Positions 11,001-55,229 are shown, numbered from the stretch's first letter. The stretch: DNA of 64,000 nucleotides from Gammaproteobacteria bacterium (GCA_016707425.1 JADJHU010000018.1:11980-75979); one strand, 5' to 3'. Program-made: numbers and translations. Notes: generated by a model not told the origin, from the letters alone.

Positions 11001-11159
11001 CGCCTCGTGAGCGCGGACCACTCCGGCGAGCGTGCACTCGTCCGTAAGCGCGATGGCCGCATAGCCGAGCTCTTTTGCACGGCGCACGAGCTCGTGCGGG
11101 TGCGAAGCACCTCGCTGGAAGGTGAAGCTGGAGCAGGCGAGCAGCTCGGCATAGCCCAT
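8094..11159 (-). CDS. dnaE2: Error-prone DNA polymerase DnaE2 (ImuC)
   Basis: Track ORF 8094..11285. I trimmed the start to MGYAELLACSSFTFQRGASHPHELV (PHP domain start typical of DnaE2). Pol III alpha core blocks occur throughout. The ATG at 11159 lies 5 nt after the imuB stop. Confidence 0.9.
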   Translation of the reverse strand: MGYAELLACSSFTFQRGASHPHELVRRAKELGYAAIALTDECTLAGVVRAHEAASEAGIKLIVGSQFRFPEGDRVVLLAPTQAAYSQLCELITQARRLATKGRYRIRREDFMTDLSGCIGIWMAASSLDARHAGWFSQLPLAFRAMGFTHDLAQQSTQHLARLEALAASMGIAVVAMGDVHYHVRERRALHDVLTAIRLGRTVAEIGRAGFANGERHLRPLATLRRLYPPHFLAGTLEIAARCTFSLSSLRYEYPRELVPRDRTAIGHLRILTEEGLLRRWPRGASGHVRALVEKELALIEELRFEHYFLTVEEIVRFARGRGILCQGRGSAANSVVCYALGITEVDPERVSMLMERFVSRERREPPDIDIDFEHQRREEVIQHIYEKYGRHRAALAATVITYRRRLAVRDVGRALGLPADVIAALAKSLYWFDGNEIPGQLARLGFDPDARVSRQLFALVSQLVGFPRHLSQHVGGFVISEQPLSSLVPVENAAMPDRTIIQWDKNDLEALGLLKVDCLCLGMLSVIRRALELKSRFDGQPFRMQDIPPEDPQTYEMLCRGESTGVFQVESRAQMSMLPRLKPREYFDLVVQIAIIRPGPIQGGMVHPYLRRREGLEPVTYPSAELERVLGRTYGVPLFQEQVMEIAMVAAGFSAGEADMVRRSMAAWERRGGLEQFRSRLIDGMLARGYARGFAESIFQQILGFGAYGFPQAHAASFALLAYVSSWLRCHQHAAFAAGLLNSQPMGFYAPAQLVADARRHGVVFRAVDVQASDWDCTLEHGTDGTPEVRLGLRLIAGLQEAEGQRIVTARSSAPFTDMTSLAHRARLDRHTLTLLANAGALRALASHRRAALWGALGTERLPGMLAGTSAREPVLPLRPPGEAGELLADYRSLGLTLGRHPLALLRRSLSALQVRRADELPRLPSGRRVRVAGIVTHRQRPETASGVLFMSLEDESGVTNLIVWPGVLQQQRQAVLASRLLIAQGEIQSESGVIHVIAEKVRDYSHWLGALPTRSRDFH

Positions 11160-11164
11160 GGCCT

Positions 11165-12568
11165 CTAGCTCCAGATGCCCTGCAGGTACCAGCGACTCGT
11201 GCGCACGTCCCGGTAGAGCCACCAGCGCGCCCCTTCCGGTGTGCGCGCCAGGTAGTAGTCTCGGGAAGAATCCTCGCCTGCCCACCAGCCTGCCTCGATA
11301 CGCTCGGGCTTGCCGCAGAGCGCGGGCAGGCGCTCGATGGGCTTTGCTTCGAGAAACCAGAGCGGCCGGTCGGGGTAATCATCGGAGAACGGTGGATCGG
11401 CTGTCGTGCCGTCCAGCACCCAGGCGCGCTCGGGGCGGTGATCGTCCGCCAGGCCCAGCCGGCGCACTGCCGTCTCACCCAGGCGGGCGCGCAGCCTGTC
11501 GAGGAGCACCGTCCAGTCTTCGTTTGGCCGGGCATCCTGATCGAAGAAATCCCCCTGACGGATCGCCGGCGCGAGGAGCTCATCGGCTGCCAGCCGGATG
11601 CCCGTGACGGCTTCAGGAAGGACCGTGCGCTCGAGCCGCTCACGCAGGAGCGCAAAGAGCCGCACGGCTTCGCGCTGCGGGCTGCTCGTGCGAACGTGGA
11701 GCATGGTTCGTGCAGCGCCTCGATGTTGCAGCGTCACGGTGAGATGCTGCAGGGCCAGGTCCCGCCCGCGCAGGAATCCCTCCAGCTCCTGGAGCAGGCG
11801 TCGCAGAGGGAAGAGGAGCCCCTCGACGGTCGCGATGGGGCAGGTGCAGTCATGGTCACGGCGGTAGCGGTCCGGCGCCCGGTGCCGCGGGCGCGGATCG
11901 GGCAACTCACCCGTGAGCTGCCGGAGATAGAGCGGCACCTCGGGACCGAAGCGGCGCGCGAGGGCGGCTGCGGGCAGCGCGAGCGCTTCGGCGATGGTGC
12001 GCAGCCCGGTGGCTCGCAGGGCAGCGACCACTTCGGGATCCAGCGCGAGAAGGCCGAGTTCCCCGGGACCGAGGCGTTCGAGCAGCGCCGGGCGGTCCAG
12101 GGCAATTCCCGAGCGCGCCTCGCGTGCCAGGATGGCGGCGCCTTCGAGGGTGGGCGCGACGCCCGAGTGTGCCGTGAAGCCGAGCGCAGCGATGCTCTCC
12201 TCGATGCGCCCGGTGAGTGCGGGCAGACTGCCGAAATAACGTGTGCTGCCCCCCACCTCCATCCAGAGAAGCCAGCGCGAGGCATCCAGGCACACCTCGG
12301 CGCTGAACTGCAGCGCCCAGTTGGCGAGACCTGCGAGGGCGCGTGCTTCCCGGGAAGGCGAGCGCTCGATGAGTCGCAGCGTGGGTTCTCTGGCCAGTGC
12401 CGTCACGGCATCGATGCCGGTTTCGATGCCTGCAGCGTGTGCCGAGGTGTTGCAGGCGAGGACGATGCGTCGCCCTCGCCGGCGATTCACGACGGCGCAC
12501 GGAAGGTTGGTTGGCGCAGGTTCGCGCTCGAGGGGGAGATTCGGAAGGAAGAGCGCCATCCAGAGCAT
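11165..12568 (-). CDS. imuB: Y-family polymerase-like protein ImuB
   Basis: 467 aa. MLWMALFLPNLPLE is the characteristic ImuB N-terminus. It sits between imuA and dnaE2. Confidence 0.85.
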   Translation of the reverse strand: MLWMALFLPNLPLEREPAPTNLPCAVVNRRRGRRIVLACNTSAHAAGIETGIDAVTALAREPTLRLIERSPSREARALAGLANWALQFSAEVCLDASRWLLWMEVGGSTRYFGSLPALTGRIEESIAALGFTAHSGVAPTLEGAAILAREARSGIALDRPALLERLGPGELGLLALDPEVVAALRATGLRTIAEALALPAAALARRFGPEVPLYLRQLTGELPDPRPRHRAPDRYRRDHDCTCPIATVEGLLFPLRRLLQELEGFLRGRDLALQHLTVTLQHRGAARTMLHVRTSSPQREAVRLFALLRERLERTVLPEAVTGIRLAADELLAPAIRQGDFFDQDARPNEDWTVLLDRLRARLGETAVRRLGLADDHRPERAWVLDGTTADPPFSDDYPDRPLWFLEAKPIERLPALCGKPERIEAGWWAGEDSSRDYYLARTPEGARWWLYRDVRTSRWYLQGIWS

Positions 12569-12580
12569 CGCAGTCGGTGC

Positions 12581-13231
12581 TCACTGGCGGTTGCCGCCGG
12601 GCGGCAAGGACAGGAGGAACTCACACGGATGCCCGCCGCGCACCTTGAGAACCTTGAGACGCAGCAGCCCGTCCCGGGGTTCGAGCTCCATGCGCAGGCC
12701 CGCAGGAGAAGCGTGCCTCAGGCTCGGGAGCGGTCGATAGATGAAGGCGAGCGCCTGGCTGCTTTCGGCGGCAAGCTGCAGTCGCCTCAGGTGACGGTCA
12801 TCGGCGTCTGTACTCCAGAGCAGCACCGCACCTGCGCCGCCTCGCAACAACTGTTCGGCGGCCCAGAGGCCTTCGTGATCGTTGGCTGCTGCGACCCATA
12901 CGAGTCGCCCGAGCGGCAGATCCGCACGCCGGAACGCCGGTGCGTAGGGCACGTATGGCGGGCGGACCAGCGCGATCTGCCTGCCCGCACGGGTGATCGT
13001 TTTCAGCGCAGGAAGAGCCAGGCTGAGCTCGCCGATCCCGTCGCAGTGCGGCACGAGCTCGACGAGCGTACCGAGAGGCCACCCACCACCCGGCAGCGTA
13101 CGGTCGAGCTCCTCGAAACTGCTGCGGACCGTGATGAGCGTCCCGTGTTCGCGTCCGCGCCAGAGATGCGGCAGCTCCTGGAGAAGCTGCTGGACTGTGA
13201 CGACAGGAGAGGCAGATTCTGGCGAGGGCAT
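12581..13231 (-). CDS. imuA: Translesion-synthesis associated protein ImuA (RecA/SulA-like)
   Basis: 216 aa. HLWRG...LDRTLPGGGWPLGTLVELV...GIGELSLALPAL is the typical ImuA core. It is the first gene of the cassette. Confidence 0.8.
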   Translation of the reverse strand: MPSPESASPVVTVQQLLQELPHLWRGREHGTLITVRSSFEELDRTLPGGGWPLGTLVELVPHCDGIGELSLALPALKTITRAGRQIALVRPPYVPYAPAFRRADLPLGRLVWVAAANDHEGLWAAEQLLRGGAGAVLLWSTDADDRHLRRLQLAAESSQALAFIYRPLPSLRHASPAGLRMELEPRDGLLRLKVLKVRGGHPCEFLLSLPPGGNRQ

Positions 13232-15057: not shown

Positions 15058-17355
15058 TCAACGGATGCTCACGGTGACCGCGTCGATGCGGCCGGTGAAG
15101 TCATTGTAGGGTGGGTAGTCGCCGACAGGCGAGCCGGTGTCGACGCCGATGTCGAAGGTCTCGTCGATCGTGAAGTAGTAAGGCGCCGTGCGTTCGAGGC
15201 GACCGCTGGCGACGGGCTTGCCGTCCACGGACAGGGTGATCGCCGCCGGTCGCCCGAAACCTTCGCCTTCGTAGGCCAGGTCGAGCGCGACGGCCGCTGC
15301 ACCGGGAGGCAGCGGGTCGTGGCCGACAAGGGTGCTGCGGCTCACGCCGAAGAGGCTGTAAGCGTAGGCCGGGTGGCCGGACGCATCGACATAGAGTGAC
15401 CAGCCGCCGTTTTTCCCGCCTTCCGCCGCGATCACGCCATGTGACGGCGCCCCGCCCTCGGGTGTGTGCAGCTTCGCCACGATGCGGTGCGAGCGAAAGA
15501 CGAAGGGCGGCGCCTGGGTCTCCGGCGTACCCACCGTGCCGCGATGGAAGACGAATTCGCTGCGTCCCGCGCTCAGGTTCGGCAGCCCGCGTGCGGGCTC
15601 GCCATCGAGCAGCGGCAGCACGTGATTGCGCGCAGCTTCCTGCTCGAACAGGGCCTGGAGCTCGCGAAGCTTCTGAGGTTCCTTTGCCGCGAGGTCATGT
15701 GCCTGGCTGAAGTCACGCGTGAGGTCGTAGAGCTCCCAGCGATCGGCCTCGAAGGGTCGGGGCTTCGAGTCCAGCAGGGCCCATGGGGCCTTGCCGTGGA
15801 AGGCACTCGCCATCCAGCCGTCGTGATAGATCGAGCGGTTGCCATAGATTTCGTAGTACTGCGTGGTGTGCCGGCTCGGCGCCGCCGCATCCGTGAAGCT
15901 GTAGAGCAGACTCACGCCGTCGATCTGCTGCTGCGGCACGCCGTTCACTGTGGCCGGTGCCTCGATGCCGGCAGCCTCCAGCACCGTGGGCATGATGTCG
16001 GCGACGAAGCCGTACTGAGAGCGGAGTCCCCCGGCATCACGGATGCGCGCCGGCCAGGTCACGACCATGGCATTGCGGATGCCACCCAGGTGCGAGGCGA
16101 CCTGCTTGGTCCACTGGAGGGGCGCATCCATTGCCCAGGCCCAGCCGGCCGGATAGTGGGCCGAGGCTGTCGGGCCACCGAGCTCATCGAGGCGGCGCAG
16201 CATCTCGGCATCCGGCATGAGCACGCCCTGGATCGCACCGTGCTCGGACCAGCCGCCCGCGAGACCGCCCTCGGCGCTCGCGCCGTTGTCACCGAAGATG
16301 TAGAAGAAGAGCGTATTGTCGGACTGGCCCATGGCGTCGAGTGCTGCGGCAAGGCGGCCGATCGCCGCGTCGGTGTGCGCGAGATAACCTGCATACACTT
16401 CCATGAGTCTCGAAGCGATACGCTGCCGCTCGGGACTGAGCGAACTCCACGCGGGCAGCTCCGCGGGGCGCGGCGTGAGTGCGGTGTTCTGCGGCACGAC
16501 ACCGAGCTTCTTCTGGCGGGCGAGGGTCTCTTCTCGCACGCGGTCCCAGCCCTGGTCGAACTTTCCGCGGAAGCGGGCGATCCATTCGGGAGGCGCCTGC
16601 AGGGGCGCGTGTGTGCCGCCCGGGGCGAAGTAGAGGAGAAAGGGCTTCTGCGGCACGAGTGATCTCTGCGCTTCGAGCCACTGGATCGCATGCGCGGTGA
16701 GATCGTCGTTCAGGTGGTAGCCCGGCCGGAGCGGCGGACGCGTCGGTGCCGTGCCTTCATAGAGCGTCGGGTGGAACTGATCGGTCTCGCCATCCATGAA
16801 GCCGTAGAACTTCTCGAAACCCATGCCAGTCGGCCAGCGATCGAAAGGCCCGGCCTGCGAGACTTCCCAGGGCGGCGCGAGATGCCACTTGCCGATGGCC
16901 GCCGTGCCGTAACCGTTCTGGCGCAGGACCTCTGCAAGCGTCGCAGCGCTCGGCGGCAGCATGCCGGTGCGCCCCGGATAGGGCGCCGGCGTGTTCATCA
17001 CGTTGCCGAGGCCGACGGCGTGCGAGTTGCGACCCGTGAGGAGCGAGGCGCGCGTGGGGCTGCATATTCCGGTCGTATGAAAAGTGTTGTAGCGCAGTCC
17101 GCGCTGCGCGAGGCGGTCGAGCGTCGGCGTCGGTACGGGACCTCCGAAAGTACTGGCAGCGCCGAAGCCGACGTCATCGAGCAGCACGATGACGACGTTC
17201 GGTGCACCGGTCGGGGCCTGGCGATGCGGGAAGAGGGCGGGTGAAGGTGAAGCTGCAGCTGCAGCGGGTGCAACCTCGAGCGCCGAGGTTCCGGAGAGCG
17301 CCAGCAGCAGGAGCGCGCAACTCCGGAGGGACCGAGTGGCGTGGCGGTGCAGCAT
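15058..17355 (-). CDS. Arylsulfatase (Cys-type, periplasmic), copy A
   Basis: The track ORF runs to 18033, but the signal peptide begins at the ATG at 17355 (MLHRHATRSLRSCALLLLALSG). Sulfatase signature HTTGICSPTRASLLTGRN. LLDDVGFG metal-binding N-terminus. Confidence 0.9.
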   Translation of the reverse strand: MLHRHATRSLRSCALLLLALSGTSALEVAPAAAAASPSPALFPHRQAPTGAPNVVIVLLDDVGFGAASTFGGPVPTPTLDRLAQRGLRYNTFHTTGICSPTRASLLTGRNSHAVGLGNVMNTPAPYPGRTGMLPPSAATLAEVLRQNGYGTAAIGKWHLAPPWEVSQAGPFDRWPTGMGFEKFYGFMDGETDQFHPTLYEGTAPTRPPLRPGYHLNDDLTAHAIQWLEAQRSLVPQKPFLLYFAPGGTHAPLQAPPEWIARFRGKFDQGWDRVREETLARQKKLGVVPQNTALTPRPAELPAWSSLSPERQRIASRLMEVYAGYLAHTDAAIGRLAAALDAMGQSDNTLFFYIFGDNGASAEGGLAGGWSEHGAIQGVLMPDAEMLRRLDELGGPTASAHYPAGWAWAMDAPLQWTKQVASHLGGIRNAMVVTWPARIRDAGGLRSQYGFVADIMPTVLEAAGIEAPATVNGVPQQQIDGVSLLYSFTDAAAPSRHTTQYYEIYGNRSIYHDGWMASAFHGKAPWALLDSKPRPFEADRWELYDLTRDFSQAHDLAAKEPQKLRELQALFEQEAARNHVLPLLDGEPARGLPNLSAGRSEFVFHRGTVGTPETQAPPFVFRSHRIVAKLHTPEGGAPSHGVIAAEGGKNGGWSLYVDASGHPAYAYSLFGVSRSTLVGHDPLPPGAAAVALDLAYEGEGFGRPAAITLSVDGKPVASGRLERTAPYYFTIDETFDIGVDTGSPVGDYPPYNDFTGRIDAVTVSIR

Positions 17356-17418
17356 GCCGGCTTCCTCCATCTGGGCAATGCGGTACAGTGTACGCTGAAA
17401 GAATGCGAGGAGGGATTC

Positions 17419-18180
17419 ATGGGCAGGCTGGCCGGCAGGATTGCAATCGTTACGGGTGGTGCGCGCGGCATCGGCGCGAGCGTCGGGCGGCTCTTCGTGA
17501 AGGAAGGTGCGCGTGTACTGATCACCGACGTGCGCGACGAACTCGGGGGCACGCTTGCGCGTGAGCTGGGTCCGAATGCCGTGTATCAGCATCTCGATGT
17601 CGGCCTCGAGAGTGACTGGGCGGCAGCGCACGATGTGGTACGCCGCCGTTTCGGGCCGCCTACGGTGCTGGTCAACAACGCCGGCATCTTCCGCACGGCG
17701 CCGATCGAGTCGCTCTCGCTGGAGAGTTACATGGAAATCGTTCGTACCAACCAGATCGGCGTCTTCCTCGGCATGCGCAGCTGCATCGCGCCCATGCGCG
17801 AGGCGGGCGGCGGGGCGATCGTCAACATCTCCTCGGCGCAGGGACTGGAGGGCATGACGAACGCGGTGGCCTACTGCGCCAGCAAGTTCGCCGTGACGGG
17901 CATGACGAAGACCGCCGGCATCGAGCTCGCGAAATACCGCATCCGCGTGAATTCCGTCCATCCCGGGCCGATCGCGACCATGCTGGTGGCCGAGGCTCAC
18001 GGCACCGGCGACATCGCTGCAGCCACGGCGCATGATCCGGGGGTGCCGGCCAGACGCTGGGGTCAGCCCGAGGATGTCGCACGCCTCGTGCTCTATCTCG
18101 CGTCGGAGGAGTCCTCCTACAGCACGGGCGGCGCCTTCACCGTCGACGGCGGACTGACTGCGGGTCTCATGTACGAATAG
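17419..18180 (+). CDS. SDR family oxidoreductase (hydroxysteroid dehydrogenase-like)
   Basis: Start trimmed to MGRLAGRIAIVTGGARGIG, with GAGGAGGGA upstream. NNAG, S...YxxxK (YCASK) and PGPI motifs. Confidence 0.85.
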   Translation: MGRLAGRIAIVTGGARGIGASVGRLFVKEGARVLITDVRDELGGTLARELGPNAVYQHLDVGLESDWAAAHDVVRRRFGPPTVLVNNAGIFRTAPIESLSLESYMEIVRTNQIGVFLGMRSCIAPMREAGGGAIVNISSAQGLEGMTNAVAYCASKFAVTGMTKTAGIELAKYRIRVNSVHPGPIATMLVAEAHGTGDIAAATAHDPGVPARRWGQPEDVARLVLYLASEESSYSTGGAFTVDGGLTAGLMYE

Positions 18181-18216: not shown

Positions 18217-18669
18217 TCAGCTCGCCGATGCCCTGATGTGTGCCGGCACATTGTGCTGGAAGCCGCTCTCCTCGACCCGTCTGCTGATGCGCCAGCCCTT
18301 CGGCGTGCGCACGAACTCATCGGCATACCAGAGCCCGAGGAACATCACCTGCGAGCCGCCCGTGGGCAGCGGCACCTCCATCGGGTTGAAGCACACGGTG
18401 CGCGCCCGCGCGCGATCGCCCTCGAGCGTGATGTCGGTGTTGGCGATCATGTGGTAGTAGGTGGGGAAACCCTGCATGGCCGGCCCGAGCCAGGCTTTCA
18501 CCTTCGGATACGGCCCATCGATGCCGCCCATGGCGCGGTAGTCGATCCAGGCATCGGGCGTGAAGACCTGGTCCAGTCGGTCCCACGCGCGCTGATCGAT
18601 CGCGCTGCTGTAGGTCACCATCAGCTGCTGGATTTCCATGCGGTCGGAGATTTCCTGGAGGCTCAGCAT
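18217..18669 (-). CDS. NTF2/SnoaL-like family protein
   Basis: The track ORF extends to 19017 through Arg-rich junk. The real start is probably MLSLQEISDRMEIQQLMVTYSSAIDQRAWDRL at 18669. Confidence 0.7.
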   Translation of the reverse strand: MLSLQEISDRMEIQQLMVTYSSAIDQRAWDRLDQVFTPDAWIDYRAMGGIDGPYPKVKAWLGPAMQGFPTYYHMIANTDITLEGDRARARTVCFNPMEVPLPTGGSQVMFLGLWYADEFVRTPKGWRISRRVEESGFQHNVPAHIRASAS

Positions 18670-18689
18670 GATGATCTCCCTGGTCGATG

Positions 18690-20633
18690 TCAGTCCGGCA
18701 GTGTGAAGGCGACGATGGAGTCGCCGGTCTTCGAGCCGAGATACTTGTGGCCGCCGGCGGCAACGACCACGTACTGCTTGCCCCCGGGCTTCAGCCGATA
18801 GGTCATGGGCGTGGCCTGGACGCCGGCCGGCAGGTGCTGCGCCCAGAGCTGGCGCCCGCTGGCGACGTCGAAGGCGCGGAAGTAGCCATCGGTGCTCGCG
18901 CCGATGAAGACGAGTCCTGATGCGGTGACGATCGACCCGCCGATGTTCGGCACTCCGAGCTTCATCCAGAAGGGCCAGGGCGCGAGCTCGCGCGTGGTGC
19001 CGAGAGGCACCTCCCACAGGCGCTTTCCGGCTTTGAGATCGATGGCGAGCAGTGTCCCCCAGGGTGGAGGATTACAGGGGGCGCCGAAAGGCGAGAGCAT
19101 CCATTCGTGCTTGAAAGCATAGGGCGCACCGAAAGCCGGGTAGAAGCGTTCGCCGCGCTTCAGGCGCTCGTCGGCCTCCTTGCGCGGGATCGCCGTGACG
19201 ATCGCGGCAATGCGCGTGGAGTTGGTGACGAGGATCTGGCGTGCGGGATCGATCGAGACGCTGCCCCAGTTCAGGAAGCCGTTGCTGAAGGGAAAGGTGA
19301 CCGTACCCTCGAGCGAAGGCAGTGAGTAGCGCCCATCGTAGCGATGCGCGCGGAAGCGCTCGCGACACTTGCCGCGATCCCAGGGCGTGAAGCCCCACAT
19401 GTTCTCTTCCGAGAGATCTCCCGGGTAGACCGTATAGGCGTCGTTTGCCGGGAAGGGTTGTGTCGGCGACGGCGTTTCGCCCGACACGGCTCCCCCCTGG
19501 GGGACCGGGCGCTCCTCGACGGGCACGAGCGGCTCACCCGTCTCCCGGTTGAGGATGAAGATGTGGCGGGGCTTCGTCGCCTGGGCGACGGCCGGCACGG
19601 GGCCGCTGGGTCCGGGAAAATCGAAGAGCACCGGCTGTGCAGGCACGTCGAAGTCCCAGAGATCGTGATGCACGGTCTGGAAGTGCCAGACGACCCGGCC
19701 CGTGGCTGCCTCGAGGGCCACGAGCGAGCTCGAGTAATAGTCGAGCCCCTTGCGCAGGCCTCCGTAGAGATCGGGCGCGGTGTTGCCCGTGGGCACGAAG
19801 ACCAAGCCTCGCTCGGGATCGACCGAGAACACCGACCAGGCATTCGCCGTGCCGCGCGCGTAGGTGTCGCTCACGCCTGCGATCTTCGGATCCACGCGAT
19901 CCGGTGGCAGCGAGTTCCAGGCCCAGGCGAGCTCGCCCGTGTGCAGGTCGAAGGCGCGCACCACGCCGGCCGGTACGTCCACTTTCAGATTGTCGACGAC
20001 GTGCCCCCCGAGAATGATCCGGCCAGCGGCGACCACGGGCGGCGAGGTCATGATGTACTCGCCCGGTTGCACTTCGCCCAGGCCGGCACGCAGATCCACC
20101 GTGCCGTGCTCGCCGAAACCTTCACAGGGCTTGCCGGTGGCGGCATCGAGGGCGATGAGCCGCGCATCGAGCGTGCCGGTGAGCACGCGGCTGCGGCATT
20201 GCGCGCCGGCCGGGGCGGAGGTGTCTTCGTGGAAGGTCACGCCGCGGCATTGCTGCAGGTAGATGCCTTTGAGATTCACCCTGGGGTCGTAGGTCCAGAG
20301 CTCGCGCCCGGTTTCGGGGTCGAGTGCGATGACCCGGTTCAGCGGTGAGCAGAGGTAGAGCCGCCCCTCGCCGAGCACGGGCGTCGTCTCGAGCGTCGGG
20401 AACTGCATCGGCTCGGGGTTCCTGAGCGTACCCGTGTGATAGGTCCAGGCGATCTCGAGCCTCGAGACGTTCTCGGGTGTGATCTGCGTGAGCGGCGAAT
20501 AACGCAGCCCCGCCTCGCTGCCGCCCCAACTCGCCCATCCGGCCACCGGGCCCGAGTAATCGAGTGGCGCGGGGCGCTGACAGCCAGCGAGCACGGCGGC
20601 TGCGGCGAGTACGCTGCAGATAGGCAGACGCAT
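18690..20633 (-). CDS. PQQ-dependent dehydrogenase (quinoprotein beta-propeller), lipoprotein
   Basis: Lipobox MRLPICSVLAAAAVLAGC. About 640 aa with repeated W-containing propeller blades. The size and pattern fit the quinoprotein glucose/alcohol dehydrogenase family. Confidence 0.8.
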   Translation of the reverse strand: MRLPICSVLAAAAVLAGCQRPAPLDYSGPVAGWASWGGSEAGLRYSPLTQITPENVSRLEIAWTYHTGTLRNPEPMQFPTLETTPVLGEGRLYLCSPLNRVIALDPETGRELWTYDPRVNLKGIYLQQCRGVTFHEDTSAPAGAQCRSRVLTGTLDARLIALDAATGKPCEGFGEHGTVDLRAGLGEVQPGEYIMTSPPVVAAGRIILGGHVVDNLKVDVPAGVVRAFDLHTGELAWAWNSLPPDRVDPKIAGVSDTYARGTANAWSVFSVDPERGLVFVPTGNTAPDLYGGLRKGLDYYSSSLVALEAATGRVVWHFQTVHHDLWDFDVPAQPVLFDFPGPSGPVPAVAQATKPRHIFILNRETGEPLVPVEERPVPQGGAVSGETPSPTQPFPANDAYTVYPGDLSEENMWGFTPWDRGKCRERFRAHRYDGRYSLPSLEGTVTFPFSNGFLNWGSVSIDPARQILVTNSTRIAAIVTAIPRKEADERLKRGERFYPAFGAPYAFKHEWMLSPFGAPCNPPPWGTLLAIDLKAGKRLWEVPLGTTRELAPWPFWMKLGVPNIGGSIVTASGLVFIGASTDGYFRAFDVASGRQLWAQHLPAGVQATPMTYRLKPGGKQYVVVAAGGHKYLGSKTGDSIVAFTLPD

Positions 20634-20662
20634 GTTGACCCCCTCGCTATGCAAGCAGGTGC

Positions 20663-21136
20663 TCAGCCGCCCGGCAGCGAGCCGGGGCCGCCTGGCATCT
20701 GCAGGAACTCGATGAGCGTCGGATCGCCCTGGCGTTCGAGGTAGGCGAAGGTGGTGTCGGGGCTGAAGCGCTTGTACCAGATCGCCTCATACCCGAGCGG
20801 CTTCACTTTCTCGATCCAGCCGTCGGCGTCGTCCACGCGGAACTGCACGTGATGGATGCCCTCGCGCCCGCGCTCGATGAACTCGCGATGCGGGCTCTCG
20901 CCGCCCTGCCACTCGATGAGCTCGATCTCGAGACTGCCGCTGCGCCCGAAGGCCAGGGCGAGCTTCGCATCGGCGATGCGCCCGCGGTAGGTGACCGCCT
21001 GCACTGAACCATCCATGGTGGTGAAGGGTCCATAGAGCGGCTCGTACAGGGCCATGGAGGTGCGCAGGTCGCGCACGACGTGACCGAGCTGGGCGATCGA
21101 CGGCAGACCGAGCTGGCGGAGGGCGGTGGCGGTCAT
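20663..21136 (-). CDS. VOC family protein
   Basis: Start trimmed to MTATALRQLGLPSIAQLGHVVRDL at 21136. GIHHVQFRVDD is a typical VOC metal-site strand. Confidence 0.7.
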   Translation of the reverse strand: MTATALRQLGLPSIAQLGHVVRDLRTSMALYEPLYGPFTTMDGSVQAVTYRGRIADAKLALAFGRSGSLEIELIEWQGGESPHREFIERGREGIHHVQFRVDDADGWIEKVKPLGYEAIWYKRFSPDTTFAYLERQGDPTLIEFLQMPGGPGSLPGG

Positions 21137-21146
21137 CGGAGGTTCC

Positions 21147-22013
21147 TCAGCGGATGAAGTTCGCGGCGAAGCGGTCCATGTGCCGCTTCTTCTCCGCGAG
21201 CGTCGTGTGCTCACCGAGAACGAAGCGGAAGGGGTAGCTGATGGCTGTCTGCATGCCGCGCTCCTCGAGATGCAGGAACGTGCCTGCATCGGGGGGTGTG
21301 CTGACGGCACCGACGATTTCGAAAGGCAGATGTGCACGACCGGCCTCCCGACGGAGCCGCGTGAGCTCGGAGATGATTTTGGGCAGCTCCTCCGGGGAAT
21401 GGCCTGCGCCGATCCAGCCGTCTGCGAGTCCCGCGGCGCGGCGGAGCGCGGCGGGACTGTTGCCGCCGGTGTAGATGGGCACCGGCTGCGGAGGCGCGGG
21501 CGAGACTTCGAGTGGCGGAAAGTCGATGTGCCGGCCATGGTGCTCGACCATGCCACCTTTCCAGAGCTTGCGCAGCACCCCGATCATCTCGTCGCAGCGC
21601 GCGGCGCGCGTGCGGAAGTCGACGCCGTAGATGTCGAACTCCTCCTTCATCCAGCCGAGTCCGGCACCGAGCAGGAAGCGCCCCTGGCTGAGAATGGCCA
21701 GCGTGCCGGTGGCGCGCGCGACTTCGAAGACGTTGCGAAGCGGCAGGATGTAGATGGCGACGGTGAGGCGGATGCGACTCGTCACCGCGGCAAGTGCGCC
21801 GATCGTGGCCCAGCAGTCCGGGAAGAAGGCGTCGTGCGCCATGGGCGGCCGGCCATCGGCCGAATAAGGGTAGGGTGAGCGCACGTCCCGGGGGAAGACC
21901 CCATGGTCGCCCAGCATGATGCCGTCGAAACCGGCTTCCTCTGCATGGCGGACGACCTCGAGCAGCTGCCCGGGCTCAGTCCAGGTGACGGCCTGCCAGA
22001 ACTTCATTGGCAC
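21147..22013 (-). CDS. Luciferase-like (LLM) oxidoreductase, probably F420-dependent (Rv2161c-like)
   Basis: 288 aa. EEAGFDGIMLGDH, LAILSQGRFLLGAGLGWMKEEF and LADGWIG. Confidence 0.8.
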   Translation of the reverse strand: MPMKFWQAVTWTEPGQLLEVVRHAEEAGFDGIMLGDHGVFPRDVRSPYPYSADGRPPMAHDAFFPDCWATIGALAAVTSRIRLTVAIYILPLRNVFEVARATGTLAILSQGRFLLGAGLGWMKEEFDIYGVDFRTRAARCDEMIGVLRKLWKGGMVEHHGRHIDFPPLEVSPAPPQPVPIYTGGNSPAALRRAAGLADGWIGAGHSPEELPKIISELTRLRREAGRAHLPFEIVGAVSTPPDAGTFLHLEERGMQTAISYPFRFVLGEHTTLAEKKRHMDRFAANFIR

Positions 22014-22083
22014 CTCGCCCGCGGTGATTAATGTGCTATTTTCAATTTACCGCACATCGGGGCGTTTGAGGAGACCTTGAACG

Positions 22084-23361
22084 ATGGATGTAGTGAGACG
22101 ATTGGTTGAGGTCCGCCCAGATTTTTTCGCTGGCCGTTCTGCGGATCTCGAACGGGCCATTCCGATCGGGGAGTTCATCTGGCAGTCCTCCGGGCTCTCC
22201 AATGCCTATATGGTCGTGACTCGGGCAGGGCGGGTGATCATCAACACCGGCATGGGTCATGAGGCGCCGAGGCACAGACAGCTCTTCGACGCCGTGTGTG
22301 CAGGACCGACTCCGTACATCGTGCTTACGCAGGGACATGTCGATCACGTAGGCGGCGTGGCGCTGTTTCGCGAGCCGGGCACGAAGCTCGTCGCGCAGCG
22401 TAATCTGCCGCTCTGCCAGCGCGACGACCAGCGCATCAAGCAGGTACGTGAATCCCAGGCGGGCATCTGGTTCGGCGAGGCACTCGCGGCGGCGCGCCGG
22501 CCGCAGGATTCGCCAGCTACGGCCGCCGCGGCGCCGCCCTTGCAGGACGTGCCGGTGGCCGATGTGAGCTTCGAGGACCGCTGTGATTTCGAGCTCGGCG
22601 GGATGCGCTTTGAACTCCACGCCGTGCCAGGCGGGGAAACCATCGACAGCTGTGCCGTGTGGCTGCCCCAGCACCGGATTCTCTTTTCCGGCAACATGTT
22701 CGGGCCGCTGTTCCCGCACTTCCCGAACTTCAATACCATTCGCGGCGATCGCTACCGCTTCGTCGAGCCCTATCTCGAGTCGCTGCGGCGGGTGCGGGCG
22801 CTCGAACCGGAACTGCTGATCACCGGACACTTCGAGCCGATCGCCGGTCGCGAGCTGATCCGTGCCTGCTTCGATCGGCTCGAGCAGGCAGTCGACTACG
22901 TGCATCGCCGTACGCTGGAGGGGATGAATGCGGGCAGGGACATCTGGACGCTCATGCGGGAGGTCCGGCTGCCGCCCGAGCTCTACGTGGGCGAGGGCTA
23001 TGGCAAGGTGAGCTGGGCGGTGCGTACCATTTGGGAGCAGTACATGGGCTGGTTCAAGGCGCAGGCGACGAGCGAGCTCTATCCGACACAGCCTCGCGAG
23101 GTCCATGGCGAACTGGTGGCGCTCGCGGGGCCGGAGGCGGTGATCGCGCGAGGTCGCGCCTGGCTCGAGGCCGGGGATCCCGAGAGGGCCATGCTGCTCG
23201 CGGAAGCGGCGCTCGCCCACGACGGGCGTTCTCAGAGCGCGCAGCGGCTCGCACGGGATGCCAACCGCGCGCTGCTCGAGCGATCCGGCGGCGGCAATTT
23301 CTGGGAGGCGGGCTGGTTGCGCACGCAGATCCGCCGTCTCGAGCAGGACATGCAGGCATGA
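22084..23361 (+). CDS. MBL-fold hydrolase with alkyl-sulfatase dimerisation domain (no SCP2 tail)
   Basis: 425 aa. MBL motif region YIVLTQGHVDHVGG, followed by ...WEQYMGWFKA...AEAALAHD...NFWEAGWL, the alkyl-sulfatase dimerisation-type helices. Confidence 0.7.
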   Translation: MDVVRRLVEVRPDFFAGRSADLERAIPIGEFIWQSSGLSNAYMVVTRAGRVIINTGMGHEAPRHRQLFDAVCAGPTPYIVLTQGHVDHVGGVALFREPGTKLVAQRNLPLCQRDDQRIKQVRESQAGIWFGEALAAARRPQDSPATAAAAPPLQDVPVADVSFEDRCDFELGGMRFELHAVPGGETIDSCAVWLPQHRILFSGNMFGPLFPHFPNFNTIRGDRYRFVEPYLESLRRVRALEPELLITGHFEPIAGRELIRACFDRLEQAVDYVHRRTLEGMNAGRDIWTLMREVRLPPELYVGEGYGKVSWAVRTIWEQYMGWFKAQATSELYPTQPREVHGELVALAGPEAVIARGRAWLEAGDPERAMLLAEAALAHDGRSQSAQRLARDANRALLERSGGGNFWEAGWLRTQIRRLEQDMQA

Positions 23362-24111
23362 GCACCTGGACGAATCCACGCTATGACTATCGCGGCGCAC
23401 AGGTGCTGGTGACCGGCGGCACGTCGGGCATCGGAGCCGGTATCGCCGCGGCGTACCGCGAGGCGGGTGCGGACGTGGTCATCACAGGCACACGTGCGAC
23501 TGCAGCGGAGTACGAGGGCGACCTCGACGGCTTTCGCTATCTGCGACTGCGGGTCGAGAACGACGCGGAGATCGAAGAGGTGGCCACGGCGCTGCCGGCG
23601 CTCGACATCCTCGTGAACAACGCCGGTGGCAACTTTCGCGGCAGAGAACGAATACGAACCCGACGTCTTCGAGCGCGCCGTGCGGGTGAACCTCCTGAGT
23701 GTCTACCGCATGGCCCATGCCTGCCGGCCGAAGCTCGCGGCGAGCCGCATCCCGGGCGGGGCGAGCGTCATCGGGATCGGCTCCATGACCTGCTACTTCG
23801 GCGTCGAGGTCGTGCCGGGTTATGGCGCGGCCAAGGGTGGACTGATGCAGCTCACGAAGACGCTCGCGATCGCCTGGGCGAAGGACCGCATCCGCGTCAA
23901 CGCCGTGGCGGGTGGCCTCATCCGGAGCCGCATGACCGAGTATTTTCTGTCGACACCCGATGCCGAGCCCTCGCGCCTGCGTACGCCGATGCAGCGCTTC
24001 GGTACGCCCGAGGAAGTGGCAGGAGCTGTGCTCTTCCTGACGAGCGAGGCGGCCAGTTTCATCACGGGTCAGACGCTGCCCGTGGACGGCGGCTTCAGCG
24101 TCATGGGTTGA
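23358..24111 (+). pseudogene. SDR family oxidoreductase, interrupted by a +1 frameshift near 23630-23645
   Basis: N-terminus MSTWTNPRYDYRGAQVLVTGGTSGIGAGIA...LVNNAGGNF is in the frame of track ORF 22659. The C-terminus (ATFAAENEYEPDVFERAV...YGAAKGG...GQTLPVDGGFSVMG) is in the frame of track ORF 23626. An ATGA overlap joins it to the upstream MBL gene. Confidence 0.75.
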
Positions 24112-24143
24112 CCCGCGTGCAGAGACGGGTGGGAGGGAGTCAC

Positions 24144-24836
24144 GTGGGGGTGCGGAGCGGGGTCCCGACACCGCGCAGTCTCGCCACGCGCGCCCGGCTC
24201 ATCGGCGCGGCCGAGCGGCTGTTCGCGGAACGCAGCATCGAGGCGGTCTCGCTCAACGAGATCAGCAAGGCCGCCGGACAGCGTAACAGCAGCGTGTGCC
24301 AGTATCACTTCCGCAACAAGCAGGGACTGCTGCGGGCGATTCTCGACAAGCACATCCCAGGCATTGCCACGGCGCGCGAGGTACTTCTCGAGCAGCTCCG
24401 GCGCTCTGGGCGTCCGCCGGGCCTGCGCGCGCTGGTGCGGGCTTTCGTGCAGCCGGTGGCGGCAAAGTTGCATGATGCGGACGGCGGCAGGGAATTCGTG
24501 CGCATCAATGCCCAACTCATTGCGCTGTACACACTGTCGGTGCAGGGTGTGCCGGTCTCGCCGCTGAAGCTGGGGCTGCATGCCGATCGTTTTTTCGAGG
24601 AGCTGCGCCGGGTGCTACGCGCTGCGGGTATTCCCGAGGCGGTCGTGCAGCAACGACTGATGCTGGCCGCGGTGCTCGTGTTCCACGGGCTCGACGATCA
24701 CGTGCGCATGCTGGACGCTGCCAGCCGGCGCGCTGCGACGCGCGGTACCACCCTGTTCATTGCCAATCTCGAGGATTCGCTGGTCGCGCTGCTCTCGGCT
24801 CCCATGCCGGCGGCGAGACGGGCGCTCAACCGCTGA
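24144..24836 (+). CDS. TetR/AcrR family transcriptional regulator
   Basis: HTH region RARLIGAAERLFAERSIEAVSLNEISKAAGQRNSSVCQYHFRNKQGLL. GTG at 24144 follows GGGAGGGAG. It is embedded in the tail of the spurious 725-aa track ORF. Confidence 0.8.
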   Translation: MGVRSGVPTPRSLATRARLIGAAERLFAERSIEAVSLNEISKAAGQRNSSVCQYHFRNKQGLLRAILDKHIPGIATAREVLLEQLRRSGRPPGLRALVRAFVQPVAAKLHDADGGREFVRINAQLIALYTLSVQGVPVSPLKLGLHADRFFEELRRVLRAAGIPEAVVQQRLMLAAVLVFHGLDDHVRMLDAASRRAATRGTTLFIANLEDSLVALLSAPMPAARRALNR

Positions 24837-24855
24837 CCGTCGAAGGAGCACAGCT

Positions 24856-25674
24856 GTGACCAAGGCACACGATCTCAAGGACAAGTACGGCCCCTGGGCG
24901 CTCGTGACCGGCGCGTCGTCCGGCATCGGCGAGCAGTTCGCACGCCAGCTCGCCCGCAGTGACATCCATCTGCTGCTGGTCGCGCGCCGCGCGGAGCGGC
25001 TCGAGAGTCTTGCGCGGGAGCTGCGCCGGCGGCGCGGCCTTCAGGTCGAGGTGGTGACGGCCGATCTGTCCGAGGCAGACGGACCGGATCGCGTCGTGGC
25101 AGCGATCGGCGATCGCGACCTGGGGTTGCTCGTGAGCAATGCCGGCTTTGGCCTCAAGGGCGATTTCGCCCACCTCGAGCGCGCGCGCACCGAGGCGATG
25201 TTCAACGTCAACGCGCGTGCACCGATGCTGCTGGCCCACGCGGTGATCCCGCGGCTGCGGGCGCGCGGGCGCGGTGGCATCATCTTCACGGGCTCGGTGG
25301 AGGGCGAGGCACCCTATCCCTTCTCGAGCGCCTATGCGGCCACCAAGGCTTTCGTTCACAGCCTCGGTATGGGACTGCACGGCGAGCTCGCCGGCAGCGG
25401 GATCGACGTGCTCGTGCTCGCACCCGGGGCGACCGATACCGATGCGATCACCCTGCAGGGCTTCAGGCGTGAACTCATGCCGAACCTCATGGCGCCTGTC
25501 GAAGTCGCGAAACAGGCGCTACGCCAGCTTGGCAGGACTCCCCTGCACGTTCCGGGGCCGGAGAACCGCAAGTACGTGAACATGATGCGGCGCATGCCAC
25601 GCGAGAAGCTCATTGCTTTCAATGCGCAGACCATGTCGGCGGCGCTGGACGCCAGCGGTCGCGGACAGAACTGA
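24856..25674 (+). CDS. SDR family oxidoreductase
   Basis: GTG at 24856 follows GAAGGAG. WALVTGASSGIGEQFA, NAGFG and YAATKAF. Confidence 0.8.
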   Translation: MTKAHDLKDKYGPWALVTGASSGIGEQFARQLARSDIHLLLVARRAERLESLARELRRRRGLQVEVVTADLSEADGPDRVVAAIGDRDLGLLVSNAGFGLKGDFAHLERARTEAMFNVNARAPMLLAHAVIPRLRARGRGGIIFTGSVEGEAPYPFSSAYAATKAFVHSLGMGLHGELAGSGIDVLVLAPGATDTDAITLQGFRRELMPNLMAPVEVAKQALRQLGRTPLHVPGPENRKYVNMMRRMPREKLIAFNAQTMSAALDASGRGQN

Positions 25675-25693
25675 ACAGGGTGGAGCAGCCCGC

Positions 25694-26950
25694 ATGCCTC
25701 AGGCCATTCATATCGACGATCTGGCTGCACCGCGCCTGAGCGAGGTGCAGGCCGGGGCACTCGCCTGGGGCGAGACGGTCACGGTCGATTTCAGCGAGCA
25801 TGCCATCCTGGATGCTGCGCGCCAGCGTACCGGTCTCTCGGATTTCGGACCGGAGGATTTTCGGGAACGGCTGCGCGTGCTGCGTGAGGCCTGGGACGGC
25901 GATCCGGAGATCACGCGCTTCCATCGCACGGTGCTGCACGGATATCTGGGGCGCTATGCGGGCAATCGGCTCCTGATCCAGGATGCTCTGAAGCGGCATC
26001 CCGCGATCCTGAACGAGCGCATCGAGCGTCCCCTGATCGTCGTGGGCTTGCCGCGCTCCGGGACCACACATATGGTGAACCTGCTGGCGGCCGACCGCCG
26101 CCTGCACTCGCTGCCACTGTGGGAGTCCTACGAGCCTGTGCCGCTGCCGGGGGAGCCGGCGCCTGGCGACGAGACCGATCCGCGCTTCCGTCGCTGTGCC
26201 GAGGCTTGGGCGGGAATGCAGCAGGCAACCCCCCTCATCGCTTCGATGCACCCGATGAACCCCGAGCACATCCATGAAGAGCTCGAGCTCATGGGGCCGG
26301 ATTTCGCGTCCTACAACTTCGAGTGGCTCGGGCTGACGCCCCGGTGGCGGGATCACTATTTCGCGCACGACCAGACGCCGCACTATGAGTACATGAAGAA
26401 CGTGCTGCGCCTGCTGCAATGGCGCCGGGGAGAGCAGAAGCGCTGGGTGCTGAAATGCCCGCAGCATCTCGAGCAGCTGCCCGTGCTCATGAAGACCTTT
26501 CCCGATGCGACGGTGATCTTCACGCACCGCGACCCCGTGGCAGTGCTCCAGTCCACCGTTACCATGCAGGCCTATACGCAGCGCATGAATCGCCGGCATG
26601 TCGCGCTGCGCGCGCTGATCGACTACTGGAGCGACCGCATCGAGCGCCTGTTGCGCGCTTGCGTACGCGACCGCGATCTCGTGCCCGCGACGCGCAGCCT
26701 CGACTCTCCGTTTCATGTCTTCATGGCTGACCAGATGGGCACCATGGAGCGCGTCTATGCCACGGCCGGGCTCGAACTGGAGGCTCCGGCACGCGGGCAG
26801 CTCATGCGCTATGTGGCCGATCACCCGCGCGGCAAGGAAGGACAGGTGATCTACGATCTGCGCCGGGATTTCGGCGTCGATCCGGCTGCGCTACATGAGC
26901 GTTTCCGCTTCTACTTTGATCGCTTTCCAGTGAAGGCCGAGGTGCGCTGA
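25694..26950 (+). CDS. Sulfotransferase family protein (cytoplasmic, about 418 aa), copy 1
   Basis: Start trimmed to MPQAIHIDDL. PAPS 5'-phosphosulfate loop GLPRSGTTHM, and a THRDP 3'-phosphate-binding region. Paralogous to 41693..42952. Confidence 0.8.
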   Translation: MPQAIHIDDLAAPRLSEVQAGALAWGETVTVDFSEHAILDAARQRTGLSDFGPEDFRERLRVLREAWDGDPEITRFHRTVLHGYLGRYAGNRLLIQDALKRHPAILNERIERPLIVVGLPRSGTTHMVNLLAADRRLHSLPLWESYEPVPLPGEPAPGDETDPRFRRCAEAWAGMQQATPLIASMHPMNPEHIHEELELMGPDFASYNFEWLGLTPRWRDHYFAHDQTPHYEYMKNVLRLLQWRRGEQKRWVLKCPQHLEQLPVLMKTFPDATVIFTHRDPVAVLQSTVTMQAYTQRMNRRHVALRALIDYWSDRIERLLRACVRDRDLVPATRSLDSPFHVFMADQMGTMERVYATAGLELEAPARGQLMRYVADHPRGKEGQVIYDLRRDFGVDPAALHERFRFYFDRFPVKAEVR

Positions 26951-26967: not shown

Positions 26968-27696
26968 TCAGGGCTGTGCGAAGCGCCCACGGCCGCAGAA
27001 GCGGTCGACAGCCTCTGCATCGGCCTTGCCGAAGGACTCGAGGTCGAGCGCTACGAAGTGCTGCTCCACCTCGAGACTCCGCTGTACGGCAGGGCGTGCC
27101 CCGATTTCAGTCAACCAGCGCTCGAGGGCAGGGTAGCGCACCGGCACGTCGTCCGATTGCAGCCACGGGAAGAACGCTCTGGCGGTGCGGATCCACGGAA
27201 AGGTCGCGACATCGGCGATCGAGTAGTCCGCGCCCCCAAGAAAGGGTGCCGCGGCGAGACGGGCCTCGAGCACCTTGAAGAGGCGTTTCGTCTCGCTCGC
27301 GTAGCGGTCTCGTCCGTAGTCATTGCCAGGCGGGGCAAAGCGGCAGAAATGCGAGTACTGGCCGAACATCGGGCCAATGGAGGCGATCTGCACCATGAGC
27401 CACTGCTCGACGACGGAACGAGCGGCAGGCGCAGCCGGCAGCAGGCGGCCCGTCTTTGCCGCGAGATACAGCAGGATCGCGCCGCTTTCGAATACCGTGA
27501 AGGGCCTGCCATCCGGGCCCTCGCCATCGACGATCACCGGCACCTTGTTGTTCGGATTCAGGCGGAGGAAGTCGGGGGCAAACTGTTCCCCCGTGGCCAC
27601 GTTCACGTGGTGGGTGCGATAGGGGAGACCGAGCTCCTCGAGCATGATCGTCACCTTGGTGACGTTGGGGCTGCACATGCCGTACAGGTCGATCAT
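26968..27696 (-). CDS. Nu-class glutathione S-transferase (YfcG-like)
   Basis: Start trimmed to MIDLYGMCSPNVTKVTIMLEELGL.... It is co-linear with my recollection of E. coli YfcG (MIDLY..., NPNNK-P-IVD, ESGAILLYLA). Confidence 0.85.
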   Translation of the reverse strand: MIDLYGMCSPNVTKVTIMLEELGLPYRTHHVNVATGEQFAPDFLRLNPNNKVPVIVDGEGPDGRPFTVFESGAILLYLAAKTGRLLPAAPAARSVVEQWLMVQIASIGPMFGQYSHFCRFAPPGNDYGRDRYASETKRLFKVLEARLAAAPFLGGADYSIADVATFPWIRTARAFFPWLQSDDVPVRYPALERWLTEIGARPAVQRSLEVEQHFVALDLESFGKADAEAVDRFCGRGRFAQP

Positions 27697-41672: not shown

Positions 41673-41692
41673 GGCCGCACGAGGAGAGGCGC

Positions 41693-52856: not shown

Positions 52857-52863
52857 GGGCATC

Positions 52864-55227: not shown

Positions 55228-55229
55228 GG

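Follow-up and report, generated by a model that had tools for sequence, protein, structure and literature searches.

The stretch of DNA analyzed here (hereafter, the window) comprises 64,000 nucleotides of a gammaproteobacterial genome (GCA_016707425.1 JADJHU010000018.1:11980-75979) and contains a string of five plus-strand genes, which opens with a gene for an alkylsulfatase-like protein of the metallo-beta-lactamase (MBL) fold and closes with a gene for a sulfotransferase of the type dependent on 3'-phosphoadenosine 5'-phosphosulfate (PAPS). We hold with high confidence that the sulfotransferase and the MBL protein are functional partners on one substrate. The more far-reaching proposal, in which the string would be a single TetR-controlled operon with a two-enzyme cytoplasmic core that employs sulfate as a temporary leaving group, is in our judgment about evenly balanced as a whole mechanism. 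The window corresponds to C18:11980-75979 of genome G000 (3.35 Mb, 67% G+C, 19 contigs, approximately 91% complete), and the closest relatives of its proteins were found in metagenome-assembled genomes (MAGs) of Steroidobacteraceae. The five genes, two of which encode short-chain dehydrogenases/reductases (SDRs), are as follows:

22084-23361, + strand: MBL alkylsulfatase-like gene, 425 aa (Pfam Lactamase_B + Alkyl_sulf_dimr)
23358-24111, + strand: SDR-1, a classical SDR, frameshifted (Pfam on the halves 23358-23642 and 23626-24111, in different frames)
24144-24836, + strand: TetR-family regulator, inside the presumptive operon (Pfam TetR_N)
approximately 24856-25674, + strand: SDR-2, 272 aa (Pfam adh_short; start with a GAAGGAG ribosome-binding site)
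25691-26950, + strand: Stf1/Stf9-like PAPS-dependent sulfotransferase, 419 aa (Pfam Sulfotransfer_3, 7.5e-38)

This order, including the frameshifted SDR and the common strand, had been read from the sequence in the original prediction and was borne out by the Pfam assignments. An ATGA at 23358-23361 combines the stop codon of the MBL gene with the start of SDR-1, the remaining intergenic gaps of the string measure 32, 19, and 16 nt, and no terminator-like site was found within the five-gene string. Given such close spacing on one strand with no internal terminator-like site, the MBL and sulfotransferase genes in the window are probably co-transcribed.

The conservation of this pairing was assessed by scanning one genome per species, whereby 299 genomes were shown to encode an MBL relative and 80 loci were retrieved. 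Linkage was tested by tblastn with the window proteins, an orthologous sulfotransferase being taken as one with at least 45% identity within 3.6 kb. Of the 50 full-flank loci, in which 3 kb or more of sequence bordered the MBL gene in either direction, 47 contained such an orthologue, and this cross-locus linkage ruled out chance co-location. Wherever both genes were present (71 loci), they shared one strand, often with gaps of 0-60 nt, and linked loci were found in Gamma-, Beta-, and Alphaproteobacteria, Myxococcota, Binatia, and Acidimicrobiales. The MBL family proved to be tightly conserved at 420-435 aa, with identities of 85% in Steroidobacteraceae, 72% in Denitratisoma sp. DHT3, and 52-57% in Acidimicrobiales and Myxococcota. 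Furthermore, the identities of the MBL protein and of the sulfotransferase to their window counterparts co-varied across loci (r = 0.96), and in the phylogenetic tree 65 MBL-linked sulfotransferases formed one clade (node support 0.61) excluding eight other sulfotransferases of G000.

The gene order around the pair differed among lineages, being MBL-SDR1-TetR-[SDR2]-sulfotransferase in Steroidobacteraceae and Rhodocyclaceae, MBL-sulfotransferase in Cellvibrionales and Alphaproteobacteria, SDR1-sulfotransferase-MBL in Acidimicrobiales, and sulfotransferase-MBL in Myxococcota. An SDR-1 orthologue stood next to the pair in 33 of the 50 loci, making it the third most conserved member of the module. 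A TetR orthologue, either internal or divergent, was present in 20 of the 50, and SDR-2 in eight loci, exclusively in the Steroidobacteraceae-type arrangement. Among the 121 species genomes of the taxonomic family of the window, 12, from 9 of 40 genera, carry the MBL gene, which points to an accessory module. Eleven of these 12 copies showed 68-100% identity and the twelfth (G046) 43%; ten of the eleven adjoin a sulfotransferase of at least 63% identity, and in the eleventh (G089) the sulfotransferase is on a different contig, near a contig end. One genome of the family (G027) possesses a sulfotransferase of that kind with no MBL gene. In three MAGs of Haliea (L015, L018, and L063), the MBL gene is followed by a TetR gene with no orthologous sulfotransferase within 3.6 kb, and in L018 there is only a paralogous sulfotransferase of 31% identity approximately 6 kb away; these MAGs are the plainest departures from the pairing.

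Natural fusions of the two proteins were also identified. In loci of the Polyangiales/Sandaracinaceae type (L055, L069, L073, and L074), the MBL protein and the sulfotransferase are encoded in a single frame of approximately 1000 aa with the Pfam architecture Lactamase_B + Alkyl_sulf_dimr + SCP2 + Sulfotransfer_3. A protein-collection search with the fusion as query yielded 27 clusters of the SCP2-bearing architecture (784-1032 aa, two of them partial), and a second architecture, consisting of the MBL, dimerisation, and sulfotransferase domains without SCP2, was represented by seven clusters (831-853 aa). These two independent fusion types, taken together with the linkage data, indicated that the two proteins act on the same thing. 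In addition, an SDR + sulfotransferase fusion (P0158, 670 aa) and a fusion of a sulfotransferase with a GFO/IDH/MocA oxidoreductase (P0164, 753 aa) suggest a dehydrogenase that would act directly before or after the sulfation step. Three further candidates were not counted. A 1052-aa frame of an Acidimicrobiaceae MAG (L078:8108-11266), which resembled a sulfotransferase-MBL fusion, was discarded as a frameshift artefact, as it contains an out-of-frame stretch before the sulfotransferase and its last approximately 70 residues are likewise out of frame; it serves as a caution when fusions are counted in long-read MAGs. P0159 and P0156 look like merged gene calls and were left out.

The original prediction had pointed to a cycle of sulfation and desulfation, either compartmentalised, with periplasmic removal and cytoplasmic addition of sulfate, or used as activation chemistry. 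The functional link between the enzymes stood, and activation chemistry fits it best, whereas the compartmentalised form did not hold for the pair. The window counts of the original prediction were confirmed by Pfam (three sulfatases of PF00884, a single protein with Alkyl_sulf_dimr, and two with Sulfotransfer_3), the sulfatases being located as follows:

15964-17202 (region also given as 15058-18033), - strand: PF00884 sulfatase (Pfam)
52792-55227, + strand: PF00884 sulfatase ORF (Pfam)
55224-57557, + strand: PF00884 sulfatase ORF (Pfam), in tandem with the preceding sulfatase with a 4-nt overlap

These three S1 sulfatases (approximately 780-810 aa), evidently exported, each have a CSPTR formylglycine motif of the Cys type and a signal peptide, signal peptides being judged throughout by eye from the N-termini. 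They could in principle strip sulfate in the periplasm for cytoplasmic sulfotransferases to restore, as the two sulfotransferases of the window show no signal peptide. By the same inspection, however, the MBL N-terminus MDVVRRLVEVRPDFFAGRSADLER also shows no signal peptide and no hydrophobic signal segment, so that the MBL protein is predicted to be cytoplasmic, and the fusions of other bacteria hold both activities in one polypeptide; on these two grounds the compartmentalised cycle was ruled out for the pair. Moreover, the nearest S1 sulfatase ends approximately 4 kb from the pair, on the opposite strand and past a separate operon, and no sulfatase family was found among the 40 commonest neighbour families of the 80 related loci. 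We therefore regard such a cycle as highly improbable, and the S1 sulfatases as not part of the sulfotransferase/MBL unit. Genome-wide, there are approximately nine S1 sulfatases and a single alkylsulfatase-like MBL gene. Meanwhile, no glycoside hydrolase was detected by Pfam in the 20 flanking window open reading frames (ORFs) scanned; the window neighbours of the pair are SDRs, a luciferase-like oxidoreductase (LLM), a VOC protein, a pyrroloquinoline quinone-dependent alcohol dehydrogenase (PQQ-ADH), an acyl-CoA dehydrogenase (ACAD), and a CoA-transferase. Judged by this gene content, the string is not a sulfatase-bearing polysaccharide utilization locus, in agreement with the earlier remark that it departs from the standard picture of such loci, in which S1 sulfatases, glycoside hydrolases, and SusCD-type or TonB uptake genes make up one regulated unit. 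Nor does the pair have S1 sulfatases as linked genes in the related loci.

The sulfotransferase scored 131 bits against a cut-off of 27 for PF13469 and gave full-length matches in the PDB to Stf1 of M. tuberculosis (2zq5, 2.2e-39, residues 42-405) and Stf9 of M. avium (2z6v, 2e-35). Its VVGLPRSGTTH loop (motif GLPRSGTT) and the segment FTHRDPVAVLQS (motif THRDP...S) align with the matching segments of Stf1 and Stf9, and we take them to be the 5'-phosphosulfate-binding loop and the 3'-phosphate-binding Arg/Ser, respectively. At the level of sequence, the protein thus shows every hallmark of the Stf1/Stf9 type, and no signal peptide was seen in it by eye. The second window sulfotransferase (41615-42952, Sulfotransfer_3), also without a signal peptide, is 30% identical to the protein of 25691-26950. 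The genome as a whole has approximately 11 Sulfotransfer_3 loci, a marked expansion of paralogues that are approximately 30% identical. One of these loci (C12:13290-14041) carries an internal TGA, and another (C1:112464-113226) is split over two frames.

Genes for PAPS supply, which the original prediction had named as a check, were indeed present. The same contig as the module encodes cysD (C18:85833-86513), an APS-kinase domain (C18:88028-88480; APS, adenosine 5'-phosphosulfate) forming part of a 799-aa frame, the probable CysNC, and a cysQ-like gene (C18:88613-89320), and a cysH-like gene was found on C4. The cysD-cysNC-cysQ row lies approximately 10-13 kb past the right end of the window, on the contig shared with the two sulfotransferase cassettes, and would apparently make PAPS and recycle 3'-phosphoadenosine 5'-phosphate (PAP). 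In one relative, cysNC is located approximately 7 kb from the module. Sulfotransferases yield PAP, which is inhibitory, and a role of the MBL protein on the cofactor side, in which it would hydrolyse PAP, PAPS, or APS instead of the sulfated acceptor, could be imagined from its conserved Arg/Asn/Thr anion site, which could take phosphate as well as sulfate. Such a role is very unlikely, however. The cysQ-like gene lies directly behind cysNC, and the genome has two further Inositol_P-family genes; the single MBL gene contrasts with the approximately 11 sulfotransferase paralogues and accompanies just one orthologous group of them; and the lipid-binding SCP2 domain of the fusions makes no sense with a nucleotide substrate.

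As for the MBL protein, the only Alkyl_sulf_dimr protein in the genome, both Pfam domains passed the cut-off (Lactamase_B, 2.6e-14; Alkyl_sulf_dimr, 4.2e-15). Sequence matches in the PDB to Pisa1 and SdsA1 were obtained with E-values of approximately 5e-12, and with 1e-23 to 1e-25 in a profile search. With the AF2 model (pLDDT 90.6, pTM 0.88) as the query, the top 13 chains returned by Foldseek were all type III alkylsulfatases (Pisa1, SdsA1, YjcS, and SdsAP), with TMq values of 0.76-0.81 at 16-21% identity. In a family alignment of 45 members from several phyla, the invariant residues include Q83, H85, D87, H88, E185, N204, H212, N215, T218, R220, and R225. Among the metal ligands, His85, Asp87, and His88 (the H-x-D-H part) and the Glu ligand E185 are kept. 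Furthermore, the segment N215-x-x-T218-x-R220-G221-x-x-x-R225, invariant in 45 of 45 members, aligns to the hN..T.RG...R motif of Pisa1, SdsA1, and YjcS, with the His that precedes this motif in the sulfatases aligning to P214. We presume that N-x-x-T-x-R-G-x-x-x-R serves in sulfate binding, a role reportedly described by Knaus et al. 2012. From the fold and these residues, the MBL protein is placed in the fold family of the alkylsulfatases and has probably kept the ability to bind a sulfate ester.

With the gene order, the domains, the conservation and fusion of the pair, the predicted cytoplasmic location, the retention of motifs, and the PAPS-making capacity established directly, we infer which reaction comes first, that a C-O bond is cleaved, what kind of product arises, and what the substrate is like, as follows. 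In the first step, the sulfotransferase would use PAPS to convert a hydroxyl group into a sulfate ester, the substrate being hydrophobic and resembling a lipid, a terpenoid, or a steroid. In the second, the MBL protein would bind this sulfate ester, break the C-O bond, and expel sulfate, with inversion, elimination to an alkene, or substitution as the outcome. The product would thus be unlike the starting alcohol, and the pair would not run futilely. Adjacent redox or isomerisation steps would fall to the SDR(s) and, frequently, to a VOC protein. That sulfate is a temporary leaving group is the economical reading of the chemistry of the characterised type III sulfatases, whose attack is directed at carbon and cleaves the C-O bond in an inverting manner (PMC3920027, PMC3725421). 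In addition, hydrolysis back to the same alcohol, in a pair that is probably co-transcribed in the window and occurs at 1:1 in the fusions, would merely burn PAPS.

The latter consideration bears on the possibility of a reversible sulfation switch, in which both enzymes would oppose each other on one metabolite, for example a signalling or membrane lipid, and so set its sulfation state. Conserved pairing and fusion suit any two activities on one substrate, other bifunctional synthase/hydrolase enzymes work in this manner, and type III sulfatases are hydrolases (PMC3920027). Nevertheless, with the genes in one close same-strand string with no internal terminator-like site, and with 1:1 fusions elsewhere, a switch of this kind would entail continuous loss of PAPS. 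The gene context appears catabolic and TetR-repressed instead of regulatory, the di-zinc site of the MBL protein is remodelled, and the distribution is patchy and accessory, at 12 of 121 family genomes. We accordingly consider a switch improbable.

Several observations weigh against sulfate serving as a leaving group in the manner proposed. Three full-flank loci, L018 and L063 (both Haliea) and L030, have the MBL gene and no nearby sulfotransferase. Bifunctional enzymes with opposing activities exist, and fusion alone is no proof of consecutive productive steps. In the window itself, SDR-1 suffers from one extra C after AACTTT at approximately 23637, a +1 frameshift evident from DNA alignment with L005, L010, L012, and L013, while the gene is intact in relatives (250-252 aa); this copy of the module may thus have undergone partial decay, except if the additional C was introduced during assembly. 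Further points concern the metal site. The metal motif of the MBL protein reads TQGHVDH, in which Q83, invariant in all 45 members, stands where HxHxDH has its first His; for the bridging Glu there is no counterpart, as it aligns to a gap that precedes the invariant N204; and Arg takes the place of the last metal-binding His (H249) in 12 of the 45 members. In SdsA1 and SdsAP, the full di-zinc ligand set consists of His, His, Glu / Asp, His, His / bridging Glu (PMC5426288), and this complete set is not present in the window MBL protein. From this alignment, the catalytic centre is not a canonical water-activating di-zinc site, and the family may be mononuclear or may hold a guanidinium in place of the second metal. 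Its chemistry may accordingly differ from that of Pisa1, or there may be no cleavage of a sulfate ester at all.

If so, the two enzymes could belong to the same pathway with the MBL protein acting on an ester, a lactone, or another anionic group and the sulfotransferase catalyzing a separate step such as a terminal conjugation. Besides the three active-site changes above, this explanation draws on the identity of merely 16-21% to characterised sulfatases, on a block invariant in and peculiar to the MBL family (C111-Q112-x-D114-D115-x-R117), and on the SCP2/Alkyl_sulf_C domain, which was not found by Pfam in the 425-aa window protein or in its unfused relatives. We nevertheless judge it unlikely, as the alkylsulfatase-shared N215/T218/R220/R225 set is invariant in the 45 members from several phyla, the regular partner is an enzyme that makes sulfate esters, and the fused forms retain the complete three-domain alkylsulfatase architecture. 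The original prediction had tied its own fate to the PAPS-binding ability of the sulfotransferases and to the MBL protein being a sulfatase. On the former side, both putative PAPS-binding motifs are retained; on the latter, the sequence preserves the anion motif shared with alkylsulfatases and not the full di-zinc site. Since the protein lacks the complete di-zinc set, the SCP2 domain, and an export signal, and shares the fold with its dimerisation domain and the anion motif, it is best described as a divergent relative, not a member, of the type III sulfatases.

The module is flanked by the following features:

20663-21142, - strand: VOC/Glyoxalase_4 protein, in a divergent operon (Pfam)
21147-22013, - strand: luciferase-like (TIGR03619-type, LLM) oxidoreductase, divergent from the MBL gene (Pfam; NCBIfam TIGR03619)
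22028-22049, no strand assigned: AT-rich operator-like element TTAATGTGCTATTTTCAATTTA, 56 nt upstream of the MBL start
26968-27696, - strand: Nu-class (YfcG/YghU-like) glutathione transferase, convergent with the sulfotransferase (Pfam; NCBIfam)

With regard to control by the internal TetR, on which the original prediction had proposed to test for co-regulation, the analysis contributed a candidate conserved operator. Of 59 loci in which MBL is the first gene, 24 carry an AT-rich palindrome, TTAATA-N6-TATTAA, in the region ahead of it, whereas shuffled upstream regions yielded 0.9 on average and never more than 4. The palindrome is without mismatch in L046 and L058, the latter having two copies, and the window copy at 22028-22049 is degenerate. 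This conservation plausibly fits control of the operon by TetR. An inverted repeat, ATGTGC-N15-GCACAT, was dropped for lack of conservation in relatives, the overlapping TTAAT...ATTAA palindrome being the conserved one.

Among the neighbours, the VOC/Glyoxalase_4 family was the fourth most frequent across the loci (clusters 5 and 12 jointly span 35 loci). The LLM protein of the window scored 208.5 bits against a TIGR03619 cut-off of 166.9, and copies 59-66% identical to it were found near the pair in L025, L026, L028, and L037, indicating a recurrent, not universal, neighbour. The glutathione transferase is an occasional one, with copies of 74-76% identity in the same position in L011 and L013. 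For SDR-2, the best NCBIfam models were mycolate reductase and one resembling 7beta-hydroxysteroid dehydrogenase, all under the cut-off, and no NCBIfam model names the MBL protein or the sulfotransferase. Across the loci, neighbours of catabolic type included KstD-like flavoproteins, SnoaL/NTF2 proteins, P450, Zn-dependent alcohol dehydrogenases, LLM, PQQ-ADH, and TonB receptors. Based on these neighbour families, the lipid-binding SCP2 domain in the fusions, and hosts that include the steroid degrader Denitratisoma sp. DHT3, the substrate of the pair is probably hydrophobic.

On the opposite strand, a divergent four-gene string (18217-22013) encodes the LLM, the VOC protein, a PQQ-ADH with a lipoprotein-like N-terminus, and a SnoaL_4 protein, and these four families recur close to the pair on a distant proteobacterial contig. 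Further away, the minus-strand region 8094-13231 holds the usual SOS mutagenesis cassette, made up of genes for a DnaE2-type polymerase (1063 aa) and an ImuB-like IMS protein together with a small ORF upstream; it is unconnected with the sulfotransferase/MBL pair.

As a tentative extension of the leaving-group mechanism, we propose that the pair could represent a hitherto undescribed PAPS-driven sulfo-activation/desulfo-lyase or invertase system in catabolism. Such a system would dehydrate or invert unreactive alcohols, for example tertiary or hindered secondary ones, of terpenoid- or steroid-like lipids, and Gln83, the absent bridging carboxylate, Arg249 in some members, and the C111-Q-x-D-D-x-R block would carry out elimination or substitution, not hydrolysis. 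Bacterial sulfation is usually viewed as a decoration of lipids, glycans, and antibiotics, and sulfatases as scavengers. The pair, by contrast, is conserved, often fused, and located in operons of catabolic type in at least five phyla. If the proposal is true, the cell would invest PAPS in the departure of an alcohol, which would add to degradation pathways a type of step not described in bacteria so far. The pair could also account for large sulfotransferase families, such as the approximately 11 loci in this 3.35-Mb genome, and would give a testable function to the very common annotation "MBL fold metallo-hydrolase". In practical terms, it could yield biocatalysts for the stereo-inversion or dehydration of alcohols, for which the single-chain fusions are ready assay material. 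A full-text literature search found no description of a sulfotransferase + MBL pair, and the papers on Denitratisoma DHT3 make no mention of the genes of the pair. The enzyme folds and the chemical idea are already known; the pairing and its use in catabolic operons have not been described previously.

Among known systems, the best sequence and fold matches of the MBL protein are the type III alkylsulfatases Pisa1 (2yhe/4axh), SdsA1 (2cfu), SdsAP (4nur), and YjcS (4pdx), with which it has in common the dimerisation domain, the Asn/Thr/Arg/Arg motif, the Glu ligand (E185), and H-x-D-H; its fused relatives additionally share an SCP2-type third domain. In contrast, the window protein has no SCP2 domain, no signal peptide, Gln for the first His, and no bridging Glu, and the family further differs in its Arg for the last His in a quarter of the members and in its identity of 16-21%. 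The characterised detergent sulfatases are not known to be partnered with a sulfotransferase, unlike the MBL family. As regards export, SdsAP has a 41-aa signal peptide (PMC5426288). The window sulfotransferase, for its part, resembles Stf1 (Rv3529c, 2zq5) and Stf9 (2z6v) in being a cytoplasmic Sulfotransfer_3 protein of approximately 400 aa, in the 5'-phosphosulfate-binding loop (GLPRSGTT against GLVRTGTT), and in the 3'-phosphate-binding Arg...Ser, and differs from them in belonging to a distinct clade defined by linkage to MBL.

Precedents for the proposed logic come from other pathways. The plant sulfotransferase LGS1, acting in strigolactone cyclisation, offers one for sulfate as a transient leaving group (PMC9292024). 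In Sterolibacterium denitrificans, a 25-hydroxysteroid kinase and a lyase activate a tertiary steroid alcohol at the cost of ATP and then eliminate it (PMC7411048, PMC8449060); with phosphate as the leaving group and unrelated enzyme families, this is an analogy only, and the sulfotransferase/MBL pair is present in the steroid degrader Denitratisoma sp. DHT3. In the CurM/Ols sulfotransferase-thioesterase systems, a PAPS-dependent sulfotransferase installs a sulfate leaving group that a second enzyme expels to give a new product (PMC3903477, PMC11730487). The likeness lies in the logic only, namely a sulfotransferase with a fused or adjacent expelling enzyme, and a relationship between the sulfotransferases themselves is established only at the superfamily level. 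The second enzyme of CurM/Ols is an alpha/beta-hydrolase thioesterase in a polyketide synthase (PKS) line, which performs a decarboxylative elimination in biosynthesis, and no PKS domains appeared in the Pfam reads of the window string and the fusions. The pair described here instead relies on an MBL-fold partner, in free-standing, apparently TetR-regulated operons of catabolic appearance.

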